From Nanobdellota archaeon (lineage in GTDB: Archaea > Nanobdellota > Nanobdellia > Nanobdellales > Nanobdellaceae): a stretch of DNA of 32,000 nucleotides. Position 1 is the stretch's first letter. Each line of letters begins with the position of its first letter. The notes under the pieces are model-generated. The model saw only the letters and a program-made list of their open reading frames with translations, had not been told where the DNA came from and searched no databases. Below are positions 4,864 to 25,586 of the stretch, piece after piece. Position numbers and translations under genes: made by a program. The stretch is taken from the NCBI GenBank assembly GCA_042850255.1, contig AP031373.1, positions 570,001 to 602,000 on the forward strand. The letters are read 5' to 3'.

Positions 4864-4889
4864 GTATTTTTAATTAATAATGATTTGTC

Positions 4890-4897: not shown

Positions 4898-4919
4898 TTT
4901 TTTCATTATAATTAAAGAA

Positions 4920-5339: not shown

Positions 5340-5393
5340 TTTTTAAATAAGGTAAAAATAAATTTATAAAATCTTTTTGCATATTCATACTTT

Positions 5394-5612: not shown

Positions 5613-5616
5613 AAAA

Positions 5617-5883: not shown

Positions 5884-5902
5884 AATACGAAATTATAAAG
5901 TT

Positions 5903-6880: not shown

Positions 6881-6910
6881 TAAGATTATATAAATTCAAA
6901 CTTTATATTT

Positions 6911-8180: not shown

Positions 8181-8219
8181 TCAGAATAATTATAAAAAAT
8201 ATTTATATATATAACTTTG

Positions 8220-9001: not shown

Positions 9002-9041
9002 TTAATATTAACTATAAATAACTTTTTTAAATATAATATTA

Positions 9042-9932: not shown

Positions 9933-10233
9933 CCTTTTTTATATATTCTTTAAATTTATCTACCTTCAAGTATAGCGCAGACAATATATCATAAGTAGAA
10001 TATTGTAGAACAGATGGTGTTATATAGTCTGAAGAAAACTTATGAGTAATTATATAACAAATATATAGTGATAATAATAATCCTGCAGTATTATATAAAT
10101 ATAATTTCTCTAAACTTTTTGAATTATCTGGAAAATAATATTTTATTACATTAACTATAAGTTTCTTTAATCTTGGATATTTATAAAAAATTCTGTCTAA
10201 TTTTTCCTCTAAATTCTTTTTATTAAATTTCAT
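9916..10233 (-). CDS. Hypothetical protein (one hydrophobic segment)
   Basis: 105-aa ORF whose start overlaps the aIF5A stop by 4 nt (operon-like). No family recognised. Confidence 0.35.
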   Translation of the reverse strand: MKFNKKNLEEKLDRIFYKYPRLKKLIVNVIKYYFPDNSKSLEKLYLYNTAGLLLSLYICYIITHKFSSDYITPSVLQYSTYDILSALYLKVDKFKEYIKKVIPYV

Positions 10234-10631
10234 TCTCTAAATGCCTGTACTATTATTTTTTCTCCTATATCCCAAATTAATACTTTCTGTCCTTCTTGTA
10301 CTTTTCCTTTCAAATTTTCATCAATAACCTTTGCATCAAATGTTTCATATGTATCTAAGTTCATTACTGTATAAACATCATCAGATACTTTTGCTATTAC
10401 TTGTCCTCTTATTTTATTAATCACAGGAACTTCTATAGGATCCTGTGTTGGTTTTACTAGTTCAGTGGTTTTACCAGATACTAATGATCTTATTACTATT
10501 CTTGCCTTTGCAGAACCATGTTTCCCAGTTTTAGCAGTTTCCATTTCCAATACTTCCCATACTTCATTATTGTACCATACATATGATCCTTTCTTCAAAT
10601 CAATTACTTTTTTTACTTGTATTTCTGGCAT
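10230..10631 (-). CDS. eif5a: Translation initiation factor 5A (aIF5A)
   Basis: Hypusine-site motif 'KTGKHGSAKARIV', with the usual SH3-like N-domain and OB C-domain length (133 aa). Confidence 0.9.
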   Translation of the reverse strand: MPEIQVKKVIDLKKGSYVWYNNEVWEVLEMETAKTGKHGSAKARIVIRSLVSGKTTELVKPTQDPIEVPVINKIRGQVIAKVSDDVYTVMNLDTYETFDAKVIDENLKGKVQEGQKVLIWDIGEKIIVQAFRE

Positions 10632-10672
10632 TCTATAATATATTTCTTAAATATTTAAATAATTATTTTAGA

Positions 10673-11881
10673 ATGGAAGTAGAGTATTTAAAAAATGATG
10701 TACCATTATATAAAATATATTTAGATAATGTTAATAGCATAGGTATTGGAATAGGATTTAATATAGGTTCTATATATGAAGAAAAAGATAAGAGAGGTAT
10801 ATCTCACTTTCTAGAACATATGATGTTTAAATCTAATGAAAAGTATACTGCAGAGCAAATTGATTATGGATTAGAATTAAATGGTGGAATTTCTAATGCT
10901 TATACATCTTATGATATAACTGGATACATTGTAGAGACAATACCAGAAGGGTTTAATAAAGTATTAGATATATTGTATTATGCAATAATAAATAAAAAAT
11001 ATAAACAGGAAGAATTTGAAAATGAGAAAAAAGTTGTTATGTCTGAAATATTGAGATATGAAAACGATCCAGAAAGTTTATTACATCTTTACTTAGGTAA
11101 ATCATTATTTGGAGATTCTGATATTGGAGATCCAATAGGCGGTACAAAAGATACTATAATAAATATAAATAAAGAAGATATTGAAGAATTTAAGGAAAAA
11201 TATTACAATCCTGATAACATGATAATTCTTTTAGAAGGGAAATTTAATGATGACCATGTAAAATTAGTAAAAGAATATTTTGAAAAAATGGAAGGAAATA
11301 GTAATAAAAAGAAAGAACCTTCTGTTAGTGATGGAAAAGATATTATAATTAAAAAAGATGGAATAAGGGATCAAATATATTATTCTTTATCTACAAATTT
11401 TAATGAAGAAGATTTAATTAATTTAGAAGCTTTATCTTCAATATTATCTGGAGGTGTATCATCAAAAGTATTTCAAATATTTAGAAATAAATATGGAATT
11501 GGATATTCTGTTTATTTATTTACAACTTTAATATATAAATATTCAATATTATCATTAATGATCCCAGGATTTGATAAAGATAAAGAAAATATGTTAAATG
11601 ATGCTATAAATTATTTTATAGATAAGTATAATGAGTATATAGATAAAGAATATATAGATGGTAGGATAAGAAGAGAGAAATTTTTATATCTAACAAAAAC
11701 AAAGGATAATATATTTAGAAGATTATTTGAAGATATAGAATATATAATTAAATTTGGAAAAAGTATTGATGATATAGAGAAAGAAGTAGAGGAAATTATA
11801 AAAAATAATTATATAGATTTGGAAAAATATTTAAAGAAATTATATAATGGTAAAAAAGTAATAATATATCCAAATGATTGA
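10673..11881 (+). CDS. M16 (pitrilysin) family zinc peptidase
   Basis: Inverted zinc motif HxxEH in 'ISHFLEHMMFKS'. I chose the ATG at 10673 (MEVEYLK...) because the track start at 10583 lies antisense inside aIF5A. Confidence 0.75.
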   Translation: MEVEYLKNDVPLYKIYLDNVNSIGIGIGFNIGSIYEEKDKRGISHFLEHMMFKSNEKYTAEQIDYGLELNGGISNAYTSYDITGYIVETIPEGFNKVLDILYYAIINKKYKQEEFENEKKVVMSEILRYENDPESLLHLYLGKSLFGDSDIGDPIGGTKDTIININKEDIEEFKEKYYNPDNMIILLEGKFNDDHVKLVKEYFEKMEGNSNKKKEPSVSDGKDIIIKKDGIRDQIYYSLSTNFNEEDLINLEALSSILSGGVSSKVFQIFRNKYGIGYSVYLFTTLIYKYSILSLMIPGFDKDKENMLNDAINYFIDKYNEYIDKEYIDGRIRREKFLYLTKTKDNIFRRLFEDIEYIIKFGKSIDDIEKEVEEIIKNNYIDLEKYLKKLYNGKKVIIYPND

Positions 11882-12506
11882 AGAAATAATAAAAGGAATA
11901 AAAGAAACATTAGAAGAAAATAATATAAATGAAAAATTAGCTTCTCCATATATTTGGGAAAAATATAAAGATCCATTAAAGGTATTAATAACTATATTGT
12001 TATCTATAAGGGTTAGAGAAGAAAAGACATTGGAAGTTTCCGAGAGACTATTTAATAAATTTAAAACACTTGAAGATTTAAAAAGAGCAAGTTTGGAAGA
12101 AATAAAAGATACTATAAAAGATATTGGATTATATAATAATAAAGCAAAATGGATAAAAGAAATTGTGAATTTATGGGATTATAGTAAATATTGCGATGAA
12201 GAATATATAAGGAGTTTACCAGGAATTGGGAGAAAAGTTGCAAATGTATATTTAATAATTGTATGTAACAAAAATTATATTGCAGTAGATACTCATGTTC
12301 ATAGAATATTTAATAGAATTGGCATTGTTAATACAAAATATCCTGAAGATACAGAAAAAGAATTATATAAAATTATTCCAGAAAAATATTGGAAAGATAT
12401 AAATTTTTTATTTGTAATATTTGGAAGAAATATTTGTAAACCTATAAATCCAAAATGTAATATTTGTAAAATAAAAAATATATGTAATTATGGAAAAAAT
12501 TATTGA
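11874..12506 (+). CDS. nth: Endonuclease III (HhH-GPD DNA glycosylase/AP lyase)
   Basis: HhH 'LPGIGRKVANVYL', 'VDTHVHRIFNRIG', and a C-terminal C-x6-C-x2-C-x5-C cluster ('CKPINPKCNICKIKNIC'). Confidence 0.85.
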   Translation: MIEEIIKGIKETLEENNINEKLASPYIWEKYKDPLKVLITILLSIRVREEKTLEVSERLFNKFKTLEDLKRASLEEIKDTIKDIGLYNNKAKWIKEIVNLWDYSKYCDEEYIRSLPGIGRKVANVYLIIVCNKNYIAVDTHVHRIFNRIGIVNTKYPEDTEKELYKIIPEKYWKDINFLFVIFGRNICKPINPKCNICKIKNICNYGKNY

Positions 12507-13114
12507 GGAGGAACAGATATTTTCAATAAATTTGCGTGTTCATCTGTTATATTTTCTTCTGCATATTTTTCTAATTTTATGCTTTCTTCTATTTTTATCT
12601 TATAAAATCCTATTTTCTTATTTTGCACATCTGCAATAAATGTTCTTATATCTGGTAAAGATTTTAAATAATCTTTTATTTTTTGATCAGATAATATTGT
12701 AGATAACTGTTTTGTTGCTAACCAGGTTCTTCCATGTATTAACAAAGCTTTATTATAATTATTCTTCATTAATTCTTCAATAGTCTTCTTTGTCATATCA
12801 TTTATTACTGATAGTTTTTGTTCTCCTCCGAATACGATAAATATAGCATCCGGATTATATTTTAATACTTCTTTTATAGTTTCCGATAGTTTATTTTCTT
12901 CATACAAAAATACTTTTGCGCTTTCATCCTTATAATTACCCTTTGATAGGAATCCTCCAATTACTGCTCCAACCATTGAAGAACATATCCTATCTGGATA
13001 CAATATTATTGCTACTCTTTTATATCCTTCTAATAGATCTCTACCAGTAAAATATCCTGTTAATCCTCTTAAATAAATTTCTTGGTCTAAAGAAGCTCTA
13101 CTTATTGTGTCCAT
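12500..13114 (-). CDS. Conserved-looking hypothetical protein (alpha/beta)
   Basis: 204-aa ORF with non-low-complexity composition. Convergent with nth, overlapping it by 7 nt. I cannot assign a family. Confidence 0.5.
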   Translation of the reverse strand: MDTISRASLDQEIYLRGLTGYFTGRDLLEGYKRVAIILYPDRICSSMVGAVIGGFLSKGNYKDESAKVFLYEENKLSETIKEVLKYNPDAIFIVFGGEQKLSVINDMTKKTIEELMKNNYNKALLIHGRTWLATKQLSTILSDQKIKDYLKSLPDIRTFIADVQNKKIGFYKIKIEESIKLEKYAEENITDEHANLLKISVPPQ

Positions 13115-13179
13115 AACTAAGTTATATAACTAAAACTTAAAAATTTAAAATAAAAGAAAGAAAAATATAGAAGGAGCCT

Positions 13180-13422
13180 TTATAATTTCTTAAATATTGC
13201 ACCTACTGCTAATTGTATATCTTCTCTCTTTACTGTTGTTCTTTTTCCGTGTGTTGCCAATGATACAGCTTCTTTTGCAATTTCAAAAGCTATGTCTTCT
13301 AATTGTTGTTTTAGGAATCTGATTGCCTTATCTGATACCCTTGTAACTCCAGCTTGTTCACCCTTTTGTTTTAAGATCCTTTCTACTACAGCCATTGGAA
13401 TTCCTCTTTCTCCTCTTGCCAT
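13180..13422 (-). CDS. Archaeal histone (HMf family)
   Basis: 'GIPMAVVERILKQ...VTRVSDKAIRFLKQQLEDIAFEIAKEAVSLATHGKRTTVKREDIQLAV' is a histone fold. The ATG at 13422 (MARGERG) is preferred because a TTTATAAA box sits at -30..-23. The track start at 13488 is a TTG upstream of that box. Confidence 0.85.
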   Translation of the reverse strand: MARGERGIPMAVVERILKQKGEQAGVTRVSDKAIRFLKQQLEDIAFEIAKEAVSLATHGKRTTVKREDIQLAVGAIFKKL

Positions 13423-13444
13423 AAAAATATATATTATGATTGTA

Positions 13445-13452
13445 TTTATAAA
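13445..13452 (-). promoter_or_regulatory. TATA box TTTATAAA of the histone gene
   Basis: Lies at -30..-23 from the ATG at 13422, which implies a leaderless mRNA. Confidence 0.5.
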
Positions 13453-13617
13453 ACTTTTCTTATTTTCCTTTTCATGAACCAAATTCAATCATAAGGACTA
13501 TTAGATCTAATATTTTGCATTTTCTTTTTGATACCTATATCATACACCATATATATAACACCAGTCATACTAACTTACCCCAATAATTTTTTATAAGGGA
13601 AAATAGTAAAAAATAGT

Positions 13618-14364
13618 TTATTCTCTAGGAGCTAGTACAAATCCGAATCTAAATTTATCAGTAGATTTATAGTCAATCCATATTGGTTTTCCTGAATCAA
13701 ATTTAAATGTTAAAGTATCTGATATTTTTGCTACTTTTGATAATTTATACAAATATTCTACAGAATATCTTGCTAAAGCTTTTGATGGAACTTCCATTGA
13801 TAATACACTTTCGTCTTGTGGAGTTAAATCAATTCTCATATCCTTTAATTCCCCTTCTGCAATGAAGGATACTTTTGGTCCATCGGGATCAGCTACTACT
13901 TTTAATTCATCAGCAATTACTTTTGCAGAGTCTATTATATCATAAAATGCTTTAGAATCCATTTCAACTTTTATAGGTAATTCTAAATTTGGCAATTCCA
14001 TAAATGATCCTTCAGATTCTATTAATGGTAATGTAAAAACCTTCTTAGCTTTGCTTTTTACTTCTATTACTAGTTTATTTTTCTCTTTATCAATTTCTAA
14101 AGTTAATTGATCTTTTAATTTTACCTTTCCCAATATCTTTCTTAAGTCTTCTAAATTTATTGTAAACTTTTCTTCTTCATTTACATCATATTCTGTAAAC
14201 ATATTTGGATACATATCCAATAATATTACTGCTACGTTTGCTGGATCTAATGATGATAAAAATATTCCATCTTTGTTTGCTTTGAATGTTCCTTCTGATA
14301 GAAAACTTACTATTGCTGGCATTATATTTTTTAATTCTTTAGCTTGAGGAAAAGTAACTTTCAT
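13618..14364 (-). CDS. pcn: DNA polymerase sliding clamp (PCNA)
   Basis: 248 aa. 'AKELKNIMPAIVSFLSEGTFKANKDGIFLSSLDPANVAVILLDM' and the two-domain length are typical of PCNA. A T6 run follows 5 nt after the stop. Confidence 0.9.
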   Translation of the reverse strand: MKVTFPQAKELKNIMPAIVSFLSEGTFKANKDGIFLSSLDPANVAVILLDMYPNMFTEYDVNEEEKFTINLEDLRKILGKVKLKDQLTLEIDKEKNKLVIEVKSKAKKVFTLPLIESEGSFMELPNLELPIKVEMDSKAFYDIIDSAKVIADELKVVADPDGPKVSFIAEGELKDMRIDLTPQDESVLSMEVPSKALARYSVEYLYKLSKVAKISDTLTFKFDSGKPIWIDYKSTDKFRFGFVLAPRE

Positions 14365-14451
14365 AAATAATATTTTCCAAAAAGTTTAATAAAAGTATCA
14401 GATAGAATAATATATCTTAAGTAGTTTATGAATCTTAAAAATTGTAATATA

Positions 14452-14670
14452 CTAGACGGTTGCTTTTCCCTGGAAATATCCTATTATTATTCCAGCCAAG
14501 AATATGAATAATGCTTGCAATGGAGTATTTTTAATTATATCATAAAGTTGATAGAAACCTTCTAAAAAATTACCATGATATACAACATAAGAATATCCTC
14601 CTATAATTGCTGCTATTATCAATAAAGCAATAACAAATGCAGTTCCTCTACTATAATATTGACTTCTCAT
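14452..14670 (-). CDS. Small two-helix membrane protein
   Basis: 72-aa ORF with two clear hydrophobic helices. It fills the gap between the helicase and PCNA genes. No family recognised. Confidence 0.4.
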   Translation of the reverse strand: MRSQYYSRGTAFVIALLIIAAIIGGYSYVVYHGNFLEGFYQLYDIIKNTPLQALFIFLAGIIIGYFQGKATV

Positions 14671-14677
14671 TATCTTC

Positions 14678-17272
14678 TTAATGTATATCTTTATTTAAAA
14701 ATATTTTATATATAAATCTTCCAGAATATTTGTCTAAATATTCATTGTAATTTCCGCATTTAGGAGAATATACACATCTAGGACATCCGTCTAAGCATTT
14801 ACAAGAATATAAGGATTTTATTGATTTCTTAACCAATTTTTCTATATTATTAAATAATATTTCTGCTAATCCTACTCCAGATTCATATCCTTCATATATA
14901 AATATAGTTGGTTTATTTGTTTGAGGATGTATAGGATAAGAATATCCACCAAGTTCTTGTGAATCTACAAAAGTTACTATTGGAGATATTTTTATTATAT
15001 TATGTTCTATTGCATGTAATCCAGATTTAAATGAAGATTGATAATCCACTATTTTCTTAACTAAAAAATTTAATATTTTATCTTTTATTCCATAATTTTT
15101 TTCTAAATATTCTTCAATTATCTCTTTAATTTTTTTAGATGCTAATCCTCTATATTTTTCATAGAAATAATCTTTATTTATTGTAGATGCAAAATTATAT
15201 ATTTCTCCAACATCGATTTTATAATTTTTATCTTTTATATACCTTTCTAATCTTTCTTTAAAGAAATTAAAATATAAATCTTCTGATTTTTTATATTTTT
15301 CAGGTATTATCATCCATATAGCTTTTGTATTAAATTCGTGTACAATACTTTTTTCATAATAATTTATATTTTGCATATAATCTTCTCCAGTCTTATATTT
15401 TTCTATATATCCTATATATTCTTTTCTAACTTTTATTTCTCCTAAATATATCTCCCAATCATTTAAATTTTTCTTATCAATTGTATTTATTATTTTTACA
15501 TCTTCAAAATATATCGGTTGAGTTTCTATATAAGGTACTTCGGGCCTGAAGAAAATAAATGTAATATTATCTATATTATAATAATCTGTTACTCTTATTG
15601 TCTTTCCTGCAGAATAATATACCATACCTGGTAATAAATATTCATAGAATGCGTATTCATCTATTTCTTCTAATATTTTTCCTTGACCCTTTAACATATT
15701 TACAACCCTTATTAAACTTTCTTTTTTCCTTATTCTTCTTATCATTTCTTCTTCATCTTTATTTAAGTCTACAATATAAAATATTTTATCAGATATATTT
15801 CTTAATCCAGAATATATTATTTGATTATTTAATTTATAATATTCTTTTCCAAACAATGGATCTTTTATTTTTTTAACTATTTGATTATCTTCTAGATCTT
15901 TTAGATATTTTTTCTCAATATCATTTAAAATACTTTCATCTATTCTTCCAAATTCATTTATTAAATATTGTAAATGCTTTTTAACTACTTTTTCATTATC
16001 TAAATTTAATGGTATATTATCTAATTTATTTTTTTCTATTCTATCAAAGAATTCTTTTATATTTGTAGAATAATAAAAATCTAGAGCATCTTTTTTAAAT
16101 ACCATTATATTTAATCCATCAGATATTCTACCAGATCTTCCAAATCTTTGTATTATAGATGATATACCATCTCTTGGGATCCCATAATTTACTACAGATT
16201 TTATTTCTCCAATATCTATTCCTAATTCTAATGCAGATGTGGTTAATAAAATTAAATATTCATTATTTTTAAACTTTTGTTCAATTTCTCTTCTTTTTTC
16301 CCTTAAATAACTAGCCTTATATGTATATATTTTATTTTCTTTATCCAACTCATTTATATCAAACTTCAATAATTCTACTCCTTTTTTTGATTCTATAAAA
16401 ACTAAAGATTTTATATTATTTTCTAATAAAATCCTTATAGTTCTCCTTAATATTAGTCTAGAACTTAAATTTTTTGGATCGATTGCAATAATAAATCTTT
16501 TATATCTTTTACTATAATCTTTATCAATTAATTCAAAATCTAAATCAAACATTTTTTTAGCAAATTCTTTTGGATTTCTTAATGTTGCAGATAATGTTAA
16601 TATTTTGAAATTATTATTTTTATAGAAATATTTTAATAATCTGACTAATCTTCTAAAAGTATATGCAGAATTTGTTCCAAATACTCCTCTATAAGAATGT
16701 AACTCATCTACAACCATCAAATCTAAATTTTTAAAGAAATAAAATAATTTATCATGATTTTTTAATAAATATAAATGCAGGTTATCTATTGTAGTTAATA
16801 TCAGATTTGGTCTTTCTCTTATTATTTTTTCTTTTTCAGAATATGTTAGATCTCCCAATATAAATTTCATTTTTAAATTCAATTTTTTATTTGTAAAGTT
16901 TTCAAAATCTTTTATTAATTCTTCAAATTTTTCATATTGATCATATAATAATGCTCTTAATGGATATATTAATAAAAAAGTTTTATTTGGATATGATAAT
17001 ATATTATCAATAATATATAATCTAAATATATGTGATTTACCGGATGCTGTTGGTGTTGTAACAATTACATTTTTATTATTATATAATAATTTTAATGATT
17101 CAACCTGATGTTTGTATAATCTAAAATTTATATAATTTAAATATTCATTTATTTCTTTATTTTTAAATTCAAAATTATCAAATTCAGGTTCTTTATTTTC
17201 TAACAATTTTATACCAACAATATGATCATTAAATTCTTTTTCAAATATTTCTTTAATATTATCAATATTCAT
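14678..17272 (-). CDS. DExH-box helicase with C-terminal DUF1998-type zinc module (MrfA/YprA/Hrq1-like)
   Basis: Motif I 'TPTASGKSH', motif II 'VVDELHSY', motif VI 'QRFGRSGR'. C-terminal four-Cys 'CKCLDGCPRCVYSPKCGNYNEYLDK'. Confidence 0.85.
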   Translation of the reverse strand: MNIDNIKEIFEKEFNDHIVGIKLLENKEPEFDNFEFKNKEINEYLNYINFRLYKHQVESLKLLYNNKNVIVTTPTASGKSHIFRLYIIDNILSYPNKTFLLIYPLRALLYDQYEKFEELIKDFENFTNKKLNLKMKFILGDLTYSEKEKIIRERPNLILTTIDNLHLYLLKNHDKLFYFFKNLDLMVVDELHSYRGVFGTNSAYTFRRLVRLLKYFYKNNNFKILTLSATLRNPKEFAKKMFDLDFELIDKDYSKRYKRFIIAIDPKNLSSRLILRRTIRILLENNIKSLVFIESKKGVELLKFDINELDKENKIYTYKASYLREKRREIEQKFKNNEYLILLTTSALELGIDIGEIKSVVNYGIPRDGISSIIQRFGRSGRISDGLNIMVFKKDALDFYYSTNIKEFFDRIEKNKLDNIPLNLDNEKVVKKHLQYLINEFGRIDESILNDIEKKYLKDLEDNQIVKKIKDPLFGKEYYKLNNQIIYSGLRNISDKIFYIVDLNKDEEEMIRRIRKKESLIRVVNMLKGQGKILEEIDEYAFYEYLLPGMVYYSAGKTIRVTDYYNIDNITFIFFRPEVPYIETQPIYFEDVKIINTIDKKNLNDWEIYLGEIKVRKEYIGYIEKYKTGEDYMQNINYYEKSIVHEFNTKAIWMIIPEKYKKSEDLYFNFFKERLERYIKDKNYKIDVGEIYNFASTINKDYFYEKYRGLASKKIKEIIEEYLEKNYGIKDKILNFLVKKIVDYQSSFKSGLHAIEHNIIKISPIVTFVDSQELGGYSYPIHPQTNKPTIFIYEGYESGVGLAEILFNNIEKLVKKSIKSLYSCKCLDGCPRCVYSPKCGNYNEYLDKYSGRFIYKIFLNKDIH

Positions 17273-17281
17273 ATCTTTTAT

Positions 17282-18697
17282 TTAGTGACTTATATTTATT
17301 TGTCTTTCATTTATTTTATAATTTGCTATAAATATTGAAAATATTCCTGAAATTATCATAAATATTATTCCAAATAATGATATATAATTAAATGCAGTAG
17401 AAGATGGTAAAAATCCTAATACTAAATATTCATTATTTATATTATAAACTAAAGGTACCTGGTATATCTGCATTAATGTTGTAGATAATACAGGTCCAAT
17501 TGCACTTCCCAATGTCCTTAATAATGTATTCAATCCTAATCCTGTAGTTCTATATTCATCAGGCAAAGATATAGAAACCATATTTACTAATGGGATCATT
17601 AAAGAAACCATTCCTATAGCCATAACAAATCCATCTAATAATAAATCAAAAGTTGTAGATCTATTAATTATTAGTAATATGAAAGAAATTACAGATAAAA
17701 ATATACCCAAAAATATTATTGGTTTTGGTCCTCTTTTTGGTAATAACTTTCCAAATAAAGGTCCAAAAATTAGCATTCCTAAAGATATTGGAGATATTAA
17801 AGTTCCTGATTGAACAATTGTTAATCCTAATCCATATGGTTTTGGTAATTGTGTATAATATGTAAAAAATATAAATAAAGAAAATAATGATATTCCTGAA
17901 AATACTCCTATAATATTTGATACTAAAAAGTTTCTTATTTTTAATAAATCAAATCTTAATAATGGTTCTTTTAATCTTTTTTCTATTAATATAAATATCA
18001 TAAATGTAATAATACTAAATATTAAATAATATATTTCACTAAACCATCCATATTCTGATCCTAAAGTTAAATAAATTAATAATAATGATACAGAAATTGC
18101 TAAAAATGTTGAACCAAAATAATCTACAGATTCTTTTAATCTTTTTCCTGTATGTGGTAAATAAATATATGATAATATAAATAATATTGCAGATAATATT
18201 GCTGCAGTATGAAATGCAGCTGGCCAACCTAAATATTGAACAATATATGATCCAATTAATAATCCTAAGGCAGGACCAATTCCTAATGTTGCACTTAAGA
18301 TTCCTTGTGCATATGCTAATTTTTCTTTAGAATATAAATCTGTAATAATTGATATTGCGATAGGAAATACAGCAAATCCTAAACCTTGTATAGCTCTGGC
18401 AAATATTAAAAAATATATATTCGGAGAAAAACCAGCTAATGATACTGCAATAATATAAAATAATATTGCCAATAAATATGTTCTTCTTTTTCCATGAATA
18501 TCTGCAACTTTTCCCATAATTGGAGAAGCTGCAGCACCGACTATCATATATGCAGTTGTAACCCAGCTTACTATATTTTCAGATACTCCAAAATATTGTT
18601 GTATATCATATAAAGCAGGAACAACCATTGTTTCAACATAATTTACTATAAGTAACATGGAAGCTAATAGTAACAATATTTTGGTATTATAATCCAT
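17282..18697 (-). CDS. MFS transporter (DHA2/EmrB-like, about 14 TM)
   Basis: 471 aa and polytopic. MFS motif A-like 'GKVADIHGKRRTYLLA'. Confidence 0.8.
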   Translation of the reverse strand: MDYNTKILLLLASMLLIVNYVETMVVPALYDIQQYFGVSENIVSWVTTAYMIVGAAASPIMGKVADIHGKRRTYLLAILFYIIAVSLAGFSPNIYFLIFARAIQGLGFAVFPIAISIITDLYSKEKLAYAQGILSATLGIGPALGLLIGSYIVQYLGWPAAFHTAAILSAILFILSYIYLPHTGKRLKESVDYFGSTFLAISVSLLLIYLTLGSEYGWFSEIYYLIFSIITFMIFILIEKRLKEPLLRFDLLKIRNFLVSNIIGVFSGISLFSLFIFFTYYTQLPKPYGLGLTIVQSGTLISPISLGMLIFGPLFGKLLPKRGPKPIIFLGIFLSVISFILLIINRSTTFDLLLDGFVMAIGMVSLMIPLVNMVSISLPDEYRTTGLGLNTLLRTLGSAIGPVLSTTLMQIYQVPLVYNINNEYLVLGFLPSSTAFNYISLFGIIFMIISGIFSIFIANYKINERQINISH

Positions 18698-18761
18698 TTT
18701 TTAGATTTATATTAAAAGTTTAAATGAATAATGTAACTACTAATATTATTCGAAAGGTATT

Positions 18762-18769
18762 TTTATAAA
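18762..18769 (+). promoter_or_regulatory. TATA box TTTATAAA of the 18792 surface-protein gene
   Basis: Lies at -30..-23 from the ATG at 18792. Confidence 0.45.
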
Positions 18770-18791
18770 AATAATTTAAAAGTAAGAAATA

Positions 18792-20315
18792 ATGGATAAA
18801 AAATTACTATTATTTCTATTATTATTTCTTCTATTTCCAATACATTCACAAATGAACCTAATTATTTATCCTCAGGTAAATCAAATAATTGAAGGAGGAC
18901 AAAATTTTGTACCAATAACATTTACAATAATAAATGCAGGTCCAACACTATTTAATGTCACATTTTATCCAATAAATGAATTTCCATTTTATCAGGCAAA
19001 TTATTATAATAATACACAAAATATAACAATAGAACAAATAAATCAAGGACAAAATATTACAATAACACTTTTCTATTATATTTCTCCAAATATAAATCCT
19101 GGTATATATGAAATACAGGTTGGAGCATATGAATATTATTATGGATTACAAAATTCTGAAATATTAAATACATCAATACCAATATTAGGTTATACAAATT
19201 TTTCTATTAACTCATTTTTTGGAACTCAAAATAATATAATTTTACCTTATAATAATCAAAAAGATGTGCCATTAACATTTGTTATAATAAATGATGGAAA
19301 TACAATACTAAATAATGTAACAGTATATTTCAATAATAACTCTAATATAGAATTTTTAGAAAATCAATATTATATAGGAATATTACCAATAGGACAGCCT
19401 TATTTTTTAACTACATATGTAAATATTAATAATTTATCTACAGGTATAAATTATGTAACATTAAATATTTCATATTTTGATGGAGATTATCAAACAATAA
19501 ATGTTCCAATTAATTTTGGATATACTAATATAGGAATAAATACTTATACTAATCCTGTAACAATATATCCGGGTAATCCTGTTCTATTAGATTCTATAAT
19601 ATTTAATTATGGTAATCAACCTGCAGGTAATTTTTATATAAATATATATTCTCCATTTGAATTATTAACATCAAATTATTATAATTTGGGAATATTGTAT
19701 CCAGGGTCTATATATAATATTTCATCATTAATATATATTCCAAGTAATACTTCTCCAGGTTATTATCCAATAATTTATGAATTAAATTATAATAACCAAC
19801 AATATAATTATACATATTATATACATGTATTGGGAGAAGCAAACATTTCAATAACAAATGTATATTATAATAATTTATATCCAGGATCTTCAGAAGTACC
19901 CATTACTGTTAATATAAAGAATATAGGAAATGTTGAAGCAAAGAATTTAATTGCAATAATTGGATCTAATAATGTAATATATCCATATGTAAGTTCTTCA
20001 AATCCATTAAGAGCATTAACAGCTTCAGAAATAAATGTAGGAAATTTATATCCAAATCAAAGTATAAATATAACATTTATAATAAAAGTATCATCTGGAG
20101 CTAATTATGGAAATTATTCTTTACCAATAATATTTGTATGGAATCAATCAGAATCTTTATATCCATTTTCTCAAGAAGAAAATATAAATATACAAGTAAT
20201 TGAACCTTTCTATTATAATCCAGAATTTTATATTAAAATAATAATCCCAATAATAATAGTAATAATTATTGGACTTATGTTATATAAATTTAGAAAAAGA
20301 AAGAATAAAAAATGA
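18792..20315 (+). CDS. Secreted, C-terminally membrane-anchored multi-domain surface protein (COG1361/CARDB-like beta-sandwich repeats)
   Basis: Signal peptide 'MDKKLLLFLLLFLLFPIHSQ'. About four ~100-aa units with the recurring pattern 'V(P/L)ITFxIxNxGxxxxxNVxV...PGxYxI'. C-terminal TM 'IIIPIIIVIIIGLMLY' plus 'KFRKRKNKK'. Dense in N-x-S/T sequons. Confidence 0.6.
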   Translation: MDKKLLLFLLLFLLFPIHSQMNLIIYPQVNQIIEGGQNFVPITFTIINAGPTLFNVTFYPINEFPFYQANYYNNTQNITIEQINQGQNITITLFYYISPNINPGIYEIQVGAYEYYYGLQNSEILNTSIPILGYTNFSINSFFGTQNNIILPYNNQKDVPLTFVIINDGNTILNNVTVYFNNNSNIEFLENQYYIGILPIGQPYFLTTYVNINNLSTGINYVTLNISYFDGDYQTINVPINFGYTNIGINTYTNPVTIYPGNPVLLDSIIFNYGNQPAGNFYINIYSPFELLTSNYYNLGILYPGSIYNISSLIYIPSNTSPGYYPIIYELNYNNQQYNYTYYIHVLGEANISITNVYYNNLYPGSSEVPITVNIKNIGNVEAKNLIAIIGSNNVIYPYVSSSNPLRALTASEINVGNLYPNQSINITFIIKVSSGANYGNYSLPIIFVWNQSESLYPFSQEENINIQVIEPFYYNPEFYIKIIIPIIIVIIIGLMLYKFRKRKNKK

Positions 20316-21979
20316 AATATTTTTCCGAATTAGCAGAAGTAATGGAAAAAGTTGAAAAAATCAATGAAAAAAGTTTGAAAGTTGATGTTTTATCAAGATT
20401 TATAAGAAGTTTAGATAAAAATGAATTAAAAATAACTATCTGGTTAATTTTGGGAAATACTGAAGAAGAATGGATTGAAAGAAAATTAAATGTATCTGTT
20501 GGGACTATAGTAAGGGTATTAAAAGATTTGGGAGTAAATATGAAAGAATTATCATTATTATATAAAAATACCGGAGATTTGGGAGAAGCTGTAAAAGTTA
20601 TATATCAAAATAAACAAATTAATATAAATAAATGGTTTAGTAAAAAATATACTATAATAGAAATATATAATGAATTAAAGAAATTAGAAAGATTAGAAGG
20701 GGAAGGATCTAGGGAAAAAAGAATATTATATCTAGAAGGTATATATAAAAATTTAGATCCTTTGGAAGCAAAATTATTGACGAGAATATTGCAAGGAGAT
20801 ATGAGATACGGAGTATTAGAAGGAACAATTGAAGATGTTTTATCTTACATTTATAGTATTCCAGATGATAAAATAAAGATTGCTCATGCAATAATTGGAG
20901 ATATTGGAGTTTTAGCAGAATATTTATATGATAATAAAAATGTAGATAATATAAATATTAGATTATTTCATCCATTTAAACCAATGCTTGCAGAAAAGGC
21001 GAATAATTTTAGAGAAGTTTTTGAAGAACACAATGGTATCTCTGCATTTGAATTTAAATTTGATGGAATAAGGGCACAGATACATAAAAAGGGAAATGAA
21101 GTAAAAATATTTACTAGAAGATTAAAGGAAGTAACAGATTCATTTCCAGATATTGTAAAATTAATATTAGATAATATAAAAAATAATGAAGTTGTAATTG
21201 AGGGAGAAATTGTTGGTTGGGATTATAATAAAAATTTACCATTACCATTTCAAGAAATTGTAAAAAGAATAAAAAGAGAGTATGAAATTGAAAAATATAT
21301 AAAAGAAATACCTGCAAGATTATTTTTATTTGATATAATATATTTAGATGGACAATTATTAATAAATAAACCATATCAGGAAAGAAGAAAGATATTGGAA
21401 AGTATAAAAGGTAATATTGATTTAACTCCAATGATAATAACTAAAAGTGAAGAAGAGGCAAAGAAATTTTTTGAAGAATCTGTAAATATGAAAAATGAAG
21501 GATTGGTTGCAAAAAAATTAGATTCTATATATATTCCTGGAAAAAGGGATAAATCTTGGTTAAAAATTAAAGGTCATTTAGAACCATTGGATTTAGTAAT
21601 AATTGGAGGAGAATGGGGTCATAGTAGGAGAAAAAATTTTATTTCAGATCTATATTTAGCAGCAAGAGATGAAGGAACTGGAAGATTTTTAATGGTTACA
21701 AAAACATTTAAAGGATTATCAGATAAAGAATATGAACAATTGACGAAAGAATTATTAAAATATAAAATAAAAGAAGAAGGAAGAATTGTATGGTTCCAAC
21801 CTAAAATAGTTGTAGAAGTAATATATGATGAGATACAGAAAAGTCCAAAATATGAATCTGGATATGCACTAAGATTTGCAAGAGTAAATAGAATAAGATG
21901 GGATAAAAGCGAAAAGGATGCAGATACAATACAAAGGATAAAGGAATTATATGAAAAACAAAAGAAAGAAGAAATATGA
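20312..21979 (+). CDS. lig: ATP-dependent DNA ligase
   Basis: Adenylation motif I 'FEFKFDGIRAQIH', 'VIEGEIV', 'EGLVAKKLDSIYIPGKRDKSWLKIK', plus an OB-domain tail. 555 aa. Confidence 0.9.
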   Translation: MKYFSELAEVMEKVEKINEKSLKVDVLSRFIRSLDKNELKITIWLILGNTEEEWIERKLNVSVGTIVRVLKDLGVNMKELSLLYKNTGDLGEAVKVIYQNKQININKWFSKKYTIIEIYNELKKLERLEGEGSREKRILYLEGIYKNLDPLEAKLLTRILQGDMRYGVLEGTIEDVLSYIYSIPDDKIKIAHAIIGDIGVLAEYLYDNKNVDNINIRLFHPFKPMLAEKANNFREVFEEHNGISAFEFKFDGIRAQIHKKGNEVKIFTRRLKEVTDSFPDIVKLILDNIKNNEVVIEGEIVGWDYNKNLPLPFQEIVKRIKREYEIEKYIKEIPARLFLFDIIYLDGQLLINKPYQERRKILESIKGNIDLTPMIITKSEEEAKKFFEESVNMKNEGLVAKKLDSIYIPGKRDKSWLKIKGHLEPLDLVIIGGEWGHSRRKNFISDLYLAARDEGTGRFLMVTKTFKGLSDKEYEQLTKELLKYKIKEEGRIVWFQPKIVVEVIYDEIQKSPKYESGYALRFARVNRIRWDKSEKDADTIQRIKELYEKQKKEEI

Positions 21980-23106
21980 ATAAAAATATAAATATTTTAA
22001 TAATATTTAGAATATTTAGAAGTTCAATTGCAGGATATATTACAGTATTTTTACCATTATTTTTATATAATGTATTAAAATTATCTTTAATTGATATAGG
22101 AATATTATTTGCATTGGGATCTTTATTTCAATCAATTTTATCATTTTTTATAGGATATTTAGGAGATAAATATAATAAGAAAAAATTATTATTTTATATT
22201 TCATTATTATTCCCTTTATCTTTAGTTATTCTTTATTTTTCTTCAAATATATATTTATTGATTATTTCATTTATTTTAGGTGGATTTGGGACTGTTGGTG
22301 CATTGGCTGGAGGCGGTGTTGGAGCAGTTGTTACTCCTATAATGAATTCTTTAATAACTGGATATGTAAATGAAAATAGAGAAAAGATTTATTCATATTT
22401 TATAATTATTTCAGGTTTGTCAGGTTCTTTAGGTGCATTATTGTTGTTCTTTTATTATAAATTTGTTTTAATATTTGGAATAATTATTTTATTATTTTCT
22501 TCTTTACTATTATTAAAATTAGATGAACCAAAAGAGATTATAATAAATAATAAAGAAGAAAGAAAAGTTGAAGGTTTAATAATATTATCTGGATTTTTAA
22601 ATGGAGCTTCTGCAGGAATAATTTATAATTTCTTACCAATAATATTTAACCATTATTTAGATTTTTCAAAAGATCAAATTAGTTTAATATATACTATTAC
22701 AGGTTTAATATCTGTTATATCACTATATTTTATTGAAAAATATATTAATTGGAATATATTTAAGAAAATTGTTTCATTTAGAATTATTTCATCAATATTT
22801 TTAATAATATTTTTAATTTCTACAATTTTTGTTTTATCAATTATTTCAATATTATCATTCATAATTTATACAACATTTAGGGTTGCATCAATTCCTTCTC
22901 AACAAGAAGTTATATCAGAAAATATTGGAAAAAGATTATCTGAAACATTTGGAGCAAATCAAAGTACAAGAATTTTAGGATCATTTATATTTCAATCTTT
23001 AGGAGGATATTTATTATCTTTATCAATTATTGCACCATTTTTAATATCTTCGATATTTTTATCAACAAGCGCATTCATTTATTATAAAATTAGAAGAATG
23101 AATTAA
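21976..23106 (+). CDS. MFS-type transporter
   Basis: 376 aa with about 10-12 TM helices. Motif-A-like 'GYLGDKYNKKKLLF'. Confidence 0.6.
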   Translation: MNKNINILIIFRIFRSSIAGYITVFLPLFLYNVLKLSLIDIGILFALGSLFQSILSFFIGYLGDKYNKKKLLFYISLLFPLSLVILYFSSNIYLLIISFILGGFGTVGALAGGGVGAVVTPIMNSLITGYVNENREKIYSYFIIISGLSGSLGALLLFFYYKFVLIFGIIILLFSSLLLLKLDEPKEIIINNKEERKVEGLIILSGFLNGASAGIIYNFLPIIFNHYLDFSKDQISLIYTITGLISVISLYFIEKYINWNIFKKIVSFRIISSIFLIIFLISTIFVLSIISILSFIIYTTFRVASIPSQQEVISENIGKRLSETFGANQSTRILGSFIFQSLGGYLLSLSIIAPFLISSIFLSTSAFIYYKIRRMN

Positions 23107-24689
23107 CTTATATAAATTGAAGGCATTACTCCATTTGGTGGATATGCTCTTGCAACTACCCATTCTACATATTGATAAGAAATACTTCCGCCAGTACCTG
23201 CTCCTATTTCTAATGTAGGATATTGAAATGGACTATAATTTAAATTAGCATATGTATAATTATTATAATTTACTGAATACGTATCTAATAATGTTAAAGG
23301 CACCCAAACCTGATTTGAACTATATTGATACCAACCTGTTTGTGCATAAGTATTATTAACTATAAGATATGTATAAAATGTACCTGCATATGTAGTAAAA
23401 GATGTCTGAGATAGTATATTATTGGTATATGCTGATTTTAAATATGTAGCTGGTCCTGATTCCGAATTACATGATCCAGGATAATATTCGAATTGGACAA
23501 ATGTAGAAGAACTTGATGCAGGTGTAGATCCACCACAAGTAGTAGGATTTACATTATATGCATCGATTTGATTATTCGTATTTCCAAATAAGGATATCGT
23601 ATTAGCATCTGCACCAGAACTTTCATACCAAGCTTCTTCTACAATTATTGGTATTTCTGGTATAGCTTCATTATTATATGGTAATATAAATGTTCCTTCC
23701 CACTCGCTATTATTTAACATTTCTATACCATTCGATGTTATAGTAGGAGTATAAGATGTATGGGCAGTAGAAGATTGATATACTATCCAACCATCAAAAG
23801 TATTATTAAAATACCCATAAGATATAAATACATATTGACCATTATCATAACCTTGAATAACTTGAGGGGATGCTCCTACATATGGATAAAATAGTTGATA
23901 ATAATTATTATTTCCGATACCCATATATACTGTTATATTGCTATTTGCTGGAATACCATTTGGAATATTTACCCACCATACATCGCAACTTACTCCACCA
24001 TCATTTAATTGGCCTTCAAACCAAGAATATGATAGTCTATTATTAAAATAAAATAATACATTATCTCCATTAGAATTTATTTCATTAAATAATGTTTGAT
24101 TATTTACATATGCAAAATTATTACCTAAATTTATTGTTCCATTACATATTGCAATATCTTGTTGGAATGGAGCAGAGGTATTTTGGTTTTGATTATTAGA
24201 TAGAATTATTGGAATAGGATTAGAAAAATATAAAACTGTATATCCTGATCCTAGATTTTTACTTTCACTTACTCCATTATAATTTATTGTTATTTGTGGA
24301 TTAATATTTATATTACTATTATATGCACATACTGTATTATTTACATAGCATATACTTTGTTGATTTGGTAATATTATATTATTATTACATATAATATTAT
24401 TTCCATTAATAGATATTACATTATTATTTTCATTTATAGTTATTATAGAATTATTTATATCTATTGGAATATTACCATTATTATAGATAATAAAATATAA
24501 TCTATTACTAGAACAATATGTATTTACAATACTAAATGATGCATATTGAGATTGTTTATTTATATTAGAATTTACAGAAGAAATTAATCCATTAAACATA
24601 CCTGTTAGAAATGCATATGTTAATCCAGAAATTGAAACTACAATAACTATTAATAATATAGTTGATATTATTGGAGATATAGATTTCAT
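23103..24689 (-). CDS. Pilin-signal-peptide surface protein, shorter paralogue of 2446-4731 (uninterrupted DUF2341-like module)
   Basis: 'MKS/ISPIISTILLIVIVVSISGLTYAFLTGMF'. Colinear with the paralogue over aa 1-150 (40/60 identical in the first 60 aa by hand count) and from 'PFQQDIAICNGT' to an almost identical end, 'YQYVEWVVARAYPPNGVMPSIYIS'. Confidence 0.7.
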   Translation of the reverse strand: MKSISPIISTILLIVIVVSISGLTYAFLTGMFNGLISSVNSNINKQSQYASFSIVNTYCSSNRLYFIIYNNGNIPIDINNSIITINENNNVISINGNNIICNNNIILPNQQSICYVNNTVCAYNSNININPQITINYNGVSESKNLGSGYTVLYFSNPIPIILSNNQNQNTSAPFQQDIAICNGTINLGNNFAYVNNQTLFNEINSNGDNVLFYFNNRLSYSWFEGQLNDGGVSCDVWWVNIPNGIPANSNITVYMGIGNNNYYQLFYPYVGASPQVIQGYDNGQYVFISYGYFNNTFDGWIVYQSSTAHTSYTPTITSNGIEMLNNSEWEGTFILPYNNEAIPEIPIIVEEAWYESSGADANTISLFGNTNNQIDAYNVNPTTCGGSTPASSSSTFVQFEYYPGSCNSESGPATYLKSAYTNNILSQTSFTTYAGTFYTYLIVNNTYAQTGWYQYSSNQVWVPLTLLDTYSVNYNNYTYANLNYSPFQYPTLEIGAGTGGSISYQYVEWVVARAYPPNGVMPSIYIS

Positions 24690-24835
24690 AATATTATTAA
24701 GATATTTAAGGATTTTAAGATTTATTATCTAAAGATTATAATCTGGTCAGAAATTATATATTACTGCTAAATTTTTGATATATTTAATTTGGATAATGTT
24801 ATAAATTATAAGGCAAATAATTAGTGCTTATAAAA

Positions 24836-24866: not shown

Positions 24867-25085
24867 ATGAGGACTATAATGATTAGAGATGAAGTATATG
24901 AAAAATTAAGAAAATTAAAAAGAAAAGGAGAATCTTTTAGCGATCTAATAGAAAGATTAATAAAATTAAGGAAAAAAAGAGAAAACAAAGTAAAAAAATT
25001 ATTAGAAAAATATGCAGGTACTCTGGAAGATGATGAATTAGTAAAAATAATAGAAGAAGAAAGAAAGAAATTTTATATTAAATGA
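24867..25085 (+). CDS. vapB: VapB-type antitoxin (COG1753/UPF0330-like)
   Basis: 72 aa. 'TIMIRDEVYEKLRKLKRKGESFSDLIERLIK' matches the small archaeal antitoxin family paired with PIN toxins. 4-nt overlap with vapC. Confidence 0.7.
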   Translation: MRTIMIRDEVYEKLRKLKRKGESFSDLIERLIKLRKKRENKVKKLLEKYAGTLEDDELVKIIEEERKKFYIK

Positions 25086-25486
25086 TACTAGATTCTTCAA
25101 TAATAATAAGATCATTTAGAAATAAAGAATTTTATAATAAAATAAAAGATAAAATAAAAGATCCTAAAATAACTTATATCACTTTTTATGAATTATTAAA
25201 GGGAGCATTCTATAAGAAATATAAGTATAATGATTATATAAATTATGCTAAAATTCTAAATATATTGAAAAATATTAAAATAATAAAAATAAGGAGAATA
25301 GATATAATATTATCATCTAAAATATGGGCAAAACTGAAAATTAATGGAATAGAAATAAATGATGCAGATATTATAATTGCAGCTATGTGTATTAATAGAA
25401 AAGAAAAACTATTAACTTCTGATAAAGATTTTGAAAAAATAAAAAATATATATAAAGATTTTAATGTAGAAATAATAGAAGTCTAA
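25082..25486 (+). CDS. vapC: PIN-domain ribonuclease toxin VapC
   Basis: 'MILDSSIII' (first acidic residue), 'NDADIIIAAMCI' and 'LLTSDKDFEKI' form the PIN acidic set. Confidence 0.8.
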   Translation: MILDSSIIIRSFRNKEFYNKIKDKIKDPKITYITFYELLKGAFYKKYKYNDYINYAKILNILKNIKIIKIRRIDIILSSKIWAKLKINGIEINDADIIIAAMCINRKEKLLTSDKDFEKIKNIYKDFNVEIIEV

Positions 25487-25512: not shown

Positions 25513-25586
25513 TGGGGCGGGTGGGATTTGAACCCACGACCTTCCGGTCTTCAGCCGGACGCTCTCCCGGTCTGAGCTACCGCCCC
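25513..25586 (-). tRNA. tRNA-Phe (anticodon GAA)
   Basis: Minus strand: GGGGCGG-TA-GCTC-AGACCGGGA-GAGC-G-TCCGG-CTGAAGA-CCGGA-AGGTC-GTGGG-TTCAAAT-CCCAC-CCGCCCC-A. Confidence 0.9.

Follow-up and report, generated by a model that had tools for sequence, protein, structure and literature searches.

The stretch analyzed here, called the window throughout, comprises 32,000 nucleotides (nt) of contig AP031373.1 (assembly GCA_042850255.1, positions 570,001 to 602,000 of the forward strand), part of the 773,326-bp chromosome of the Nanobdellota archaeon YN1. Its subject is a pair of genes, A and B, which encode modular type-IV-pilin-like proteins with a C-terminal lectin-like domain. YN1, or 'Candidatus Nanofervidus parviconus', is an obligate ectosymbiont of Sulfurisphaera ohwakuensis, with 889 coding sequences and a GC content of 23.4%, and pilins go unmentioned in the paper that describes its genome (PMC11420986). 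The window is AT-rich (GC ~0.17–0.32) and its gene content is archaeal, as seen from an ATP-dependent DNA ligase, an XPD-type helicase, ribosomal protein S8e, and an intron-containing tRNA; RadA, PCNA, and eIF5A are also present, as assigned by reading of the sequences. Genes A and B both appear to be monocistronic. The coordinates of the features discussed below are collected in Table 1.

Table 1. Features of the two pilin-lectin genes, their modules, and their surroundings. Positions are those of the window, except for the MJ1 gene pair, which is given in the coordinates of its own locus (L060); aa, amino acids.
Feature	Position	Strand	Remarks
Gene A, 761 aa	2446..4731	+	Open reading frame (ORF); paralog of B with the same modules plus linker and insert
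Gene B, 528 aa	23103..24689	-	ORF; modular type-IV-pilin-like protein with C-terminal lectin-like domain
B pilin module, aa 1-157	24219..24689	-	Leader MKS, hydrophobic helix, immunoglobulin-like (Ig-like) beta-sandwich, 4 conserved Cys
B lectin-like module, aa 187-528	23106..24131	-	Concanavalin A (ConA)-like/L-type lectin beta-sandwich by Foldseek
A lectin-like module, aa 420-761	3703..4728	+	60% identical to that of B
Most variable lectin segment, B aa 361-420	23430..23609	-	27-43% identity to A, 67-77% to YN1_6960
Ser/Thr/Asn-rich linker, ~aa 156-205 of A	2911..3060	+	Only in A, by alignment
187-aa insert, aa 233-419 of A	3142..3702	+	Cys-rich, all-beta, directly after PFQQDIAICNGT
Junction, putative A/B gene-conversion tract	24050..24182	-	Encodes ...SPFQQDIAICNGT / NLGxNFAYVNNQTxFNEI
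18.4-kb segment bounded by the inverted paralogs	4732..23102	.	By synteny with loci L002, L003, L005, L015, L071, and L029
tRNA-Ile	2270..2342	+	Co-oriented with A, 104 nt upstream of it
tRNA-Leu(TAA), intron-containing	4737..4863	-	Rfam 46.5 bits; 3' end 5 nt from the stop codon of A
tRNA-Phe	25513..25586	-	Co-oriented, upstream of B; likewise next to the pilin-lectin gene of Nanopusillus, Nanobsidianus, and Nanobdella
PIN-domain (VapC-like) gene	25082..25486	+	Pfam PIN 1.6e-12; between tRNA-Phe and B
12-mer upstream of A	2407..2418	+	Overlaps a TATA-like box (TTTATATA) 24-31 nt before the ATG
12-mer upstream of B	24730..24741	-	TTTAGATA follows; distance to the ATG 13 nt greater than for A
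MJ1 gene pair at L060	L060:6001-7968 and L060:9153-13115		655-aa and 1,320-aa genes

A and B are inverted, colinear paralogs with 18,372 bp between them, and in this the preliminary description of the locus, which had been made from the sequence and a list of its ORFs, was accurate as to the ORFs, their orientation, and their 18.4-kb spacing. BLASTP aligns the C-terminal 357 aa of the two proteins at 60% identity (E 9e-130) and their N-terminal parts at 53% (E 3e-39), and the DNA is 73.4% identical over 1536 aligned nt. The gap-free N-terminal alignment described earlier extends over the first 157 aa, with 101 of the first 150 residues identical, and the hand count of 40 identities in the first 60 aa is reproduced exactly. 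The four cysteines reported as conserved lie at positions 59, 101, 114, and 121 of both proteins and are invariant in 48 members of the family. At the other end, conservation of the C-terminal region is borne out by the BLASTP alignment, and 23 of the last 24 aa are identical. Exact DNA runs of 39, 29, 29, 28, 25, and 24 nt are common to both genes; the identical end runs described earlier as 23–25 nt long correspond at the 5' end to those of 25 and 24 nt and at the 3' end to one of 29 nt. The 39-nt run, which encodes SPFQQDIAICNGT, would by simple arithmetic be expected ~0.002 times under uniform divergence at 73.4% over 1536 nt. The middle of the two proteins does differ, as had been proposed, but the alignment attributes this mainly to two insertions in A and not to a diverged homologous stretch.

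The N-terminal module has the features of an archaeal type IV pilin. Both proteins begin with a very short charged leader (MKS), which is followed by a hydrophobic helix (ISPII(S/A)TILLIVIV...), and both exceed the 20-bit cutoff of TIGR02537 (arch_flag_Nterm), with 23.8 bits for B and 33.4 bits for A. The AlphaFold2 (AF2) model of B consists, in this part, of a long helix (residues 6–36) and then a beta-sandwich with strands between residues 52 and 154, at a predicted local distance difference test score (pLDDT) of ~70–80, and the earlier reading of A and B as pilin-like surface proteins therefore holds. A profile built from 48 family members matches solved archaeal pilins, namely 8fk7 (3e-6) and Iho670 (5kyh). 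Pfam Pilin_N matches 46 of the 48 members at E<=1 (best 2.6e-5) and Arch_flagellin matches 30 of the 48, in both cases mostly below the curated cutoffs. Among NCBIfam models the best match of the module is UpsA (NF046073), with E values of 4e-13 for B and 1e-17 for A. Searches of large databases with the N-terminal module or with the 187-aa insert of A returned nothing useful; an exhaustive search with the N-terminal module yields 56 clusters at E<=0.001, and the short matches, which come from very short contigs and carry no informative name or taxon, are probably fragments. Acquisition of a UpsA-like pilin module from the Sulfolobales host is a conceivable origin.

In the AF2 model of B, the pilin domain is followed by a large all-beta domain. 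Foldseek comparison of the lectin module of B with the PDB gives 111 matches at E<=0.001, and among the 50 matches listed almost all are L-type lectins, including ERGIC-53, VIP36, Emp46p, and legume lectins. The target-normalized TM-score (TMt) is 0.55–0.67 for nearly all of the single-domain targets listed; ERGIC-53 (4ygc) is matched with an E value of 1.9e-7 and a TMt of 0.64, and a Methanocaldococcus jannaschii legume-lectin domain (7elv) with a TMt of 0.66. To judge by the modeled fold, the C-terminal module is an L-type-lectin-like beta-sandwich that weakly resembles DUF2341, a family of the ConA clan for which one precomputed match (PF10102) is found in family member P0065. The stretch at B aa 261–297 (window 23799–23909), YYxxYYPYVGxSPQVIxGYDNGQxVFIxYGYFNNTFD, is among the most conserved of the family, and it may be a conserved loop or a binding site that needs a ligand, a metal, or a partner.

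The two elements that set A apart from B are a linker behind the pilin module and the insert that precedes the lectin module. Relatives of the insert were found only in the YN1 paralog YN1_8890 and, by tblastn in related loci, in two genes of other architectures at one locus (L060, 59.6% identity) of Nanobdella aerobiophila MJ1. Its AF2 model is all-beta and of low confidence (pLDDT 59.8, predicted TM-score 0.69), and its fold matches are weak and mixed (a phage receptor-binding-protein head, a collagen-binding domain, and CBM6, all at E>=0.004), and for these reasons we refer to it merely as a beta-sandwich. N-X-S/T sequons number 30 in A and 11 in B, Lys and Arg together come to just 6–7, and Asn, Ser, Tyr, and Thr are abundant in both proteins. 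This composition fits extracellular proteins of an acidophile, and the Ser/Thr/Asn-rich linker of A is probably glycosylated.

A and B belong to a multigene family, as the preliminary description had supposed, with 323 database relatives at E<=0.001. The named ones are all from Nanopusillus, Nanobsidianus, or Nanoarchaeota, and the rest are metagenome proteins. Close strain variants of B are absent from the databases, where the best non-self match is 63% identical. Scans of genomes reveal at least four copies in Nanopusillus acidilobi 7A and at least six loci in N. aerobiophila MJ1; lectin modules that are more weakly related turn up in Parvarchaeota, Micrarchaeota, and a small number of other archaea. 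The family thus occurs in three cultivated co-culture systems, those of YN1, N. aerobiophila MJ1, and N. acidilobi. Its lectin module is found behind at least five kinds of N-terminus: the pilin type (MKSISPII), a short pilin type, the MRLQSE type, the MARSQ type, and a Sec type (MKLLK). Two members deserve mention as observations in their own right. In the metagenome protein P0002 (851 aa) the lectin module is present twice, as two complete tandem units that each open with PFQQDIAICN and close with YPPNGVMP. In Nanopusillus sp. DS.bin.8 the syntenic pilin-lectin gene (L009:742-2336) matches B over residues 1–528, with 67% identity in the best segment; its longest ORF has just 318 aa, which could reflect a frameshift, a pseudogene, or an assembly error.

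The pilin and lectin modules meet at a conserved junction strand, Y-x-I/V-T-I/L-Y-N-x-Q...PFQQDIAICNG, and traces of exchange between family members are located here. In the comparisons that follow, A and B were compared with each other at the DNA level, and with YN1_8890 and YN1_6960 at the protein level. The junction of A and B contains the 39-nt exact run plus 52 nt at 92% identity. Here, on both flanks of the insert of A (~130 nt), the proportion of synonymous differences (pS) falls to 0.06–0.08, as compared with 0.41 overall; in nine other gene pairs the same region has a pS of 0.11–0.63, and in the four of these that include A or B it is 0.33–0.63. Within the tract, 29 consecutive conserved codons show identical codon choice (permutation p = 0.012). 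We regard it as a putative short gene-conversion or crossover tract. The sliding-window profile that had been suggested as a check gives amino-acid identities of 40–87% between A and B in 30-codon windows; for the most part these track family-wide conservation, the pS drop at the junction being the component specific to the pair.

Sharper breakpoints are seen in other pairs of paralogs. Residues 1–174 of A are 100% identical to those of YN1_8890, and since identity over the whole alignment is 74%, the remainder must be about two-thirds identical. B aa 331–495 are 67–93% identical to YN1_6960, a paralog without the pilin module, and 20–83% identical to A or YN1_8890, with the latter values falling to 20–43% at aa 361–420. 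In MJ1, identity between the genes at L029 and L030 is 95–100% over the stretch that begins at the start codon and ends with the junction, at about +590 nt; it is 31–38% upstream and 45% past the junction, and it becomes visible ~40 nt before the ATG. At MJ1 L060, 1,439 nt that span the junction, the insert, and the lectin module are 99.65% identical between a 655-aa gene of pilin type and a 1,320-aa gene of Sec type. The second gene, a neighbor of the first, seems to run on into Ig-like repeats and a region resembling pectin lyases, a reading based on the proteins of 908–1,320 aa described for this organism (bioRxiv 10.1101/2023.10.27.564410).

A neighbor-joining bootstrap tree of the lectin modules leads to the same picture. 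B groups with YN1_6960 (97.5%), A with YN1_8890 (100%), all MJ1 sequences with one another (100%), and Nanopusillus with Nanobsidianus (90%), while groups of the same architecture receive 0%, such that the modules are sorted by genome. Since the architectures themselves are common across genera, this grouping implies concerted evolution or repeated swapping of modules within genomes. It also follows, from the lectin module of B being sister to that of YN1_6960 and that of A to that of YN1_8890, that the relation between A and B is not that of simple duplicates. On this sequence evidence, exchange between paralogs is real, and its stronger signals lie in pairs other than A/B. The mosaic pattern put forward in the preliminary description is accordingly real at the level of the family, but in the A/B pair itself it is modest and amounts to two indels and one tract of ~130 nt.

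The further proposal that the pair diversifies under selection did not fare as well. Nei-Gojobori comparison of A and B over 513 codons gives a pS of 0.41 and a proportion of nonsynonymous differences (pN) of 0.22, with a dN/dS of ~0.43, and diversifying selection is not demonstrated for A/B by these values. Only in B aa 361–420 does pN roughly match pS, and it does so even between closely related Nanopusillus sequences (L015/L017 and L001/L005), a pattern that is compatible with relaxed or diversifying selection. Between YN1 and N. acidilobi the pilin-lectin proteins are 63% identical, as compared with 85% for XPD, 88% for RadA, 67% for FtsX, and 63% for a 471-aa secreted protein; between YN1 and the positional ortholog in MJ1 the value is 49%, with 62–77% for neighboring genes. 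The pilin-lectin gene is therefore among the faster-evolving genes of its neighborhood without being extreme.

Taken together, these results lead us to consider it fairly probable, if well short of certain, that A and B are glycan-binding adhesins, presented on a pilus or at least anchored by a pilin module, that act in host attachment and whose repertoire is renewed by exchange of modules between paralogs. The N-terminal module would be cut by a prepilin peptidase and inserted into a type-IV-pilus-like filament, where the bulky head suggests that A and B would be low-abundance or tip subunits. The lectin-like head would thereby be displayed for binding of glycans, most plausibly those of the heavily N-glycosylated S-layer of the Sulfolobales host, and this binding would contribute to attachment and to the choice of host. 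A role in host recognition is a reasonable expectation given the lectin fold and the analogous systems considered below. The family evolves by module exchange within the genome, and this exchange, by gene conversion or by recombination, has its breakpoints at the conserved junction.

Several observations weigh against this interpretation. Pfam Pilin_N (PF07790) scores A at 20.3 bits, below the gathering threshold of 25.2, and has no match in B. The UpsA scores of 49.6 bits (B) and 64.3 bits (A) are far under the cutoff of 130 for that model, and we rejected an identification of A and B as UpsA, taking them to be related pilins instead. Neither pilus assembly genes (ATPase, platform protein, prepilin peptidase) nor other pilins are present in the 32-kb window. 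The AF2 model of B is of moderate confidence overall (pLDDT 72.6), and the highly conserved stretch at aa 261–297 is modeled poorly, with a pLDDT below 50. Pfam lectin families and DUF2341 (PF10102) have no match in A or B, such that membership by sequence profile is not established; among the 48 family members, DUF2341 matches 24, all below threshold (best E 5.8e-4). Glycoside hydrolases, too, belong to the ConA-like lectin/glucanase superfamily. Finally, the putative conversion tract in A/B is argued from a single permutation test (p = 0.012).

The most serious alternative is that A and B stay outside filaments altogether, as surface lectins anchored in the membrane or the S-layer, with a class III signal peptide that serves just for export and anchoring. 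Sulfolobus sugar-binding proteins, which carry class III signal peptides and form the 'bindosome', provide a parallel. The lack of pilus assembly genes nearby is in keeping with such proteins, as is the size of the head, which at 370–600 aa is large for a filament subunit, and elsewhere in the family the lectin module follows ordinary signal peptides of the Sec type, which implies that it works without the pilin part. However, the N-terminal 150 aa go beyond a signal peptide and make up a complete pilin-like helix plus Ig-like domain. This module is moreover kept identical between paralogs by conversion, which suggests a need to fit a shared partner or assembly. In addition, the related lectin-bearing gene at MJ1 L060, a 655-aa gene of the MRLQ type, is the third of three consecutive genes (159, 152, and 655 aa) with class-III-like N-termini, and thus lies within a cluster of pilin-like genes. 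We consider anchored surface lectins unlikely on balance, although the idea retains some real weight.

It could also be asked if A and B are simply old, diverged paralogs, in which patchiness reflects core and loop constraint along with AT-biased codons, and neither exchange nor adaptive diversification has taken place. The dN/dS of ~0.43 indicates purifying selection, the identity profile mostly follows family-wide conservation, and the exact DNA runs encode peptides that are invariant in the family, all of which such an account would predict. It does not explain why the pS drop at the junction is specific to A/B and absent in the nine other gene pairs, why the lectin module of B is sister to that of YN1_6960 and not to that of A, or why identity breaks off sharply in A/YN1_8890 and in the MJ1 paralogs. 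We therefore find it very unlikely. A touch less credible still is the notion that the C-terminal module is an enzyme that trims the S-layer glycans of the host, namely a ConA-like glycoside hydrolase. Apart from the membership of hydrolases in the superfamily, it can draw on the strand PLIVEEAWY, in which Glu351 is invariant and Glu352 nearly so, and on the first listed Foldseek matches of the Saccharibacteria pilin PilX1, which mix hydrolases and lectins (PMC11623550). For B, however, the best structural matches listed are almost all non-enzymatic L-type lectins, and no glycoside-hydrolase family was matched in Pfam or NCBIfam.

The surroundings of the two genes show how the arrangement in YN1 differs from that of its relatives. 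In N. acidilobi, Nanobsidianus, and several metagenome-assembled genomes of Nanopusillus, the order is eIF5A...RadA...S8e, tRNA-Leu (with intron), a single pilin-lectin gene, tRNA-Phe, XPD, and FtsX. In YN1 this pilin-lectin locus is split, with A adjoining the orthologous tRNA-Leu and S8e block and B on the tRNA-Phe/XPD side; the orthology of the tRNA-Leu to the one that precedes the single gene in Nanopusillus and Nanobsidianus was established by alignment to L002, L003, and L015. The intervening 18.4-kb segment consists of the S8e..RadA..eIF5A block joined to a block that extends from an M16 peptidase to a major facilitator superfamily transporter and includes a helicase and the DNA ligase. 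The arrangement on the B side is also that of Nanobdella MJ1. Relative to both flanking tRNAs, the pilin-lectin gene has opposite orientations in YN1/MJ1 and in Nanopusillus, and this flip requires at least two events and rules out a single simple inversion from the Nanopusillus order to that of YN1. One consistent scenario has two steps: the gene would first flip between its two convergent tRNAs, and recombination of two inverted paralogs would then invert the segment between them and leave a copy at each end.

The association with tRNAs extends beyond this locus. Across the window and loci L001–L037, pilin-type copies lie almost always just downstream of a tRNA, at 49–208 nt from a co-oriented one, and at least six tRNAs (Leu, Phe, Lys, Val, Arg, and Ile) are involved. 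As background, 25 of the 429 ORFs in the same loci (5.8%) have such a tRNA, and about half of these are family genes. MRLQ-type genes always have a tRNA-His 28–31 nt downstream. The 3' ends of tRNAs are candidates for recombination or insertion hot spots, or for boundaries of rearranged blocks. ARAGORN with default settings does not detect the tRNA-Leu(TAA) of the window, which Rfam does, and the intron of this tRNA is ~25 nt longer in YN1 than in the Nanopusillus and Nanobsidianus orthologs.

Inverted copies at both ends of a segment rearranged relative to Nanopusillus, with a conversion tract at the junction, might bring to mind programmed variation, in which A and B would drive a reversible 18.4-kb inversion or act as donor and acceptor cassettes in the manner of a shufflon or pilE/pilS, but this is extremely unlikely, as the longest identical run is just 39 nt, both copies are full-length with promoter-like sequences, and the arrangement around B is fixed and common to Nanobdella MJ1. 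Searches of the window by tblastn and blastn with A, B, and four relatives find just the two genes and no silent cassette, and a scan of its ORFs found no recombinase, reverse transcriptase, or template repeat, such that a diversity-generating retroelement, a silent-cassette system, or a shufflon was rejected for want of components in the window. In Neisseria, pilin genes (pilE/pilS) owe their diversity to gene conversion among paralogous copies within a genome. The A/B family differs in that its copies are complete and apparently expressed, that conversion often homogenizes the conserved pilin module instead of diversifying a variable one, and that there is no sign of high frequency.

For A and B as pilin-anchored adhesins, the closest parallel in module order is PilC of Streptococcus sanguinis, in which a class III signal peptide with a pilin moiety, an Ig-like module, and a ConA-like lectin module follow each other as they do here; PilC binds glycans and has been modeled at the pilus tip with other minor pilins (PMC9934059). 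Unlike A and B, PilC is bacterial and encoded inside a pil operon, and the likeness is one of module order, with binding by A and B being predicted. The A/B family also differs from PilC in being multicopy and tRNA-adjacent, in lying outside a pilus locus, and in exchanging modules between paralogs. A second parallel comes from the Saccharibacteria, in which TM7x, an ultrasmall obligate episymbiont, has lectin-like minor pilins (PilX1 and PilX2); PilX1, like A and B, has a C-terminal L-type-lectin-like domain, and the pili contribute to host binding, which is reduced by exogenous sugars (PMC11623550). In contrast to A and B, the TM7x pilins are bacterial and belong to defined type IV pilus systems with genetic evidence, and the likeness is one without shown homology. 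The host surface also differs, being cell-wall polysaccharide for TM7x and a glycosylated S-layer for YN1.

Among archaea, DUF2341 proteins encoded in type IV pilus loci (arCOG03508) have been predicted to be tip adhesins by analogy with PilY1 (PMC4858521). They resemble A and B in carrying a ConA-clan domain and in their association with archaeal type IV pili, but they are large, separate proteins encoded in pilus operons of methanococci and other archaea, whereas A and B fuse the lectin-like module to the pilin module. The Ups pili of Sulfolobales recognize S-layer glycans in a species-specific manner (PMC7064770). Unlike A and B, UpsA and UpsB (NF046073/NF046074) are encoded in the ups operon, the UpsA model covers just 136 positions, and Ups pilins lack an appended lectin domain. 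Closer to YN1, MJ1_0179 of N. aerobiophila has been described as an N-terminal transmembrane helix followed by an Ig-like fold and a legume/ConA-like lectin domain, with a proposed role in host recognition (bioRxiv 10.1101/2023.10.27.564410). This architecture, in a sister genus, is by its description the same as that of A and B, and MJ1_0179 may belong to their family; the description gives it no pilin label and makes no reference to a paralog family, to exchange of modules, or to linkage with tRNAs. Nanoarchaeota have also been reported to possess type IV pilus systems in addition to the archaellum, and their hypothetical surface proteins to show a raised density of nonsynonymous single-nucleotide polymorphisms (PMC6142677).

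The modular type IV pilin with a lectin module is therefore already known as a kind of protein, as are lectin-like surface proteins in Nanobdella. By word search within the papers covered, the following appear to be undescribed: this archaeal family of pilin-lectin proteins as such, its concerted evolution module by module with breakpoints at the junction, the split and inverted arrangement in YN1, and the adjacency to tRNAs. On the question of how DPANN ectosymbionts such as the Nanobdellota recognize and hold a single host species, the published accounts of YN1 and Nanobdella offer attachment structures, but no adhesin is named in them with confidence (PMC11420986; bioRxiv 10.1101/2023.10.27.564410). 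The A/B family provides concrete, expressible candidates for such adhesins in three cultivated DPANN-host systems, and its combination of a pilin module with a lectin-like head matches that of experimentally supported bacterial adhesins, including those of episymbionts. Module exchange and placement at tRNAs suggest how a genome of ~0.7 Mb may keep varying its surface. In its most far-reaching form, which we think quite unlikely to hold in full, a slowly recombining adhesin repertoire would set the host range of thermoacidophilic Nanobdellota, with modules reshuffled at PFQQDIAICNG, copies seeded at the 3' ends of tRNAs, A/B recombination behind the 18.4-kb rearrangement, and heads that read species-specific S-layer N-glycans of Sulfolobales.

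The remaining features of the window concern the flanks of the two genes and their neighbors. The 12-nt motif TTATAATCTTTA, which had been reported upstream of both genes, is indeed found at the two positions, and a third copy lies at 5230–5241(-), inside the S8e gene. Three occurrences compare with 0.26 expected, and 1 of 100 shuffles reached three. The motif is enriched, yet one copy is within the S8e gene, and we rejected it as a specific regulatory element; its position and the archaeal TATA consensus point instead to a putative part of the AT-rich B recognition element (BRE)/TATA promoter region, shared by descent. The PIN-domain gene next to B has no tblastn counterpart at that position in the related Nanopusillus, Nanobsidianus, and Nanobdella loci, and no ORF of at least 80 aa that could be an antitoxin partner adjoins it. 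A cluster of three genes at 27436–30756(-) encodes an ATP-binding cassette (ABC) ATPase, the 471-aa secreted protein, which has no Pfam family, and a MacB/FtsX-like permease; the cluster is syntenic in Nanopusillus, Nanobsidianus, and Nanobdella, and its secreted partner is 59–63% identical between genera. The 507-aa protein encoded at 18792–20315(+) begins with a signal peptide, has a weak NPCBM_assoc/NEW3-like match, and is likely another surface protein; its gene adjoins that of the DNA ligase in Nanobdella MJ1 as well, with 68% identity. Lastly, the M16 peptidase ORF at 10583–11881(+) overlaps the end of the eIF5A gene (10230–10631(-)) by 49 nt (10583–10631), which indicates that the true start of the peptidase is probably further downstream.

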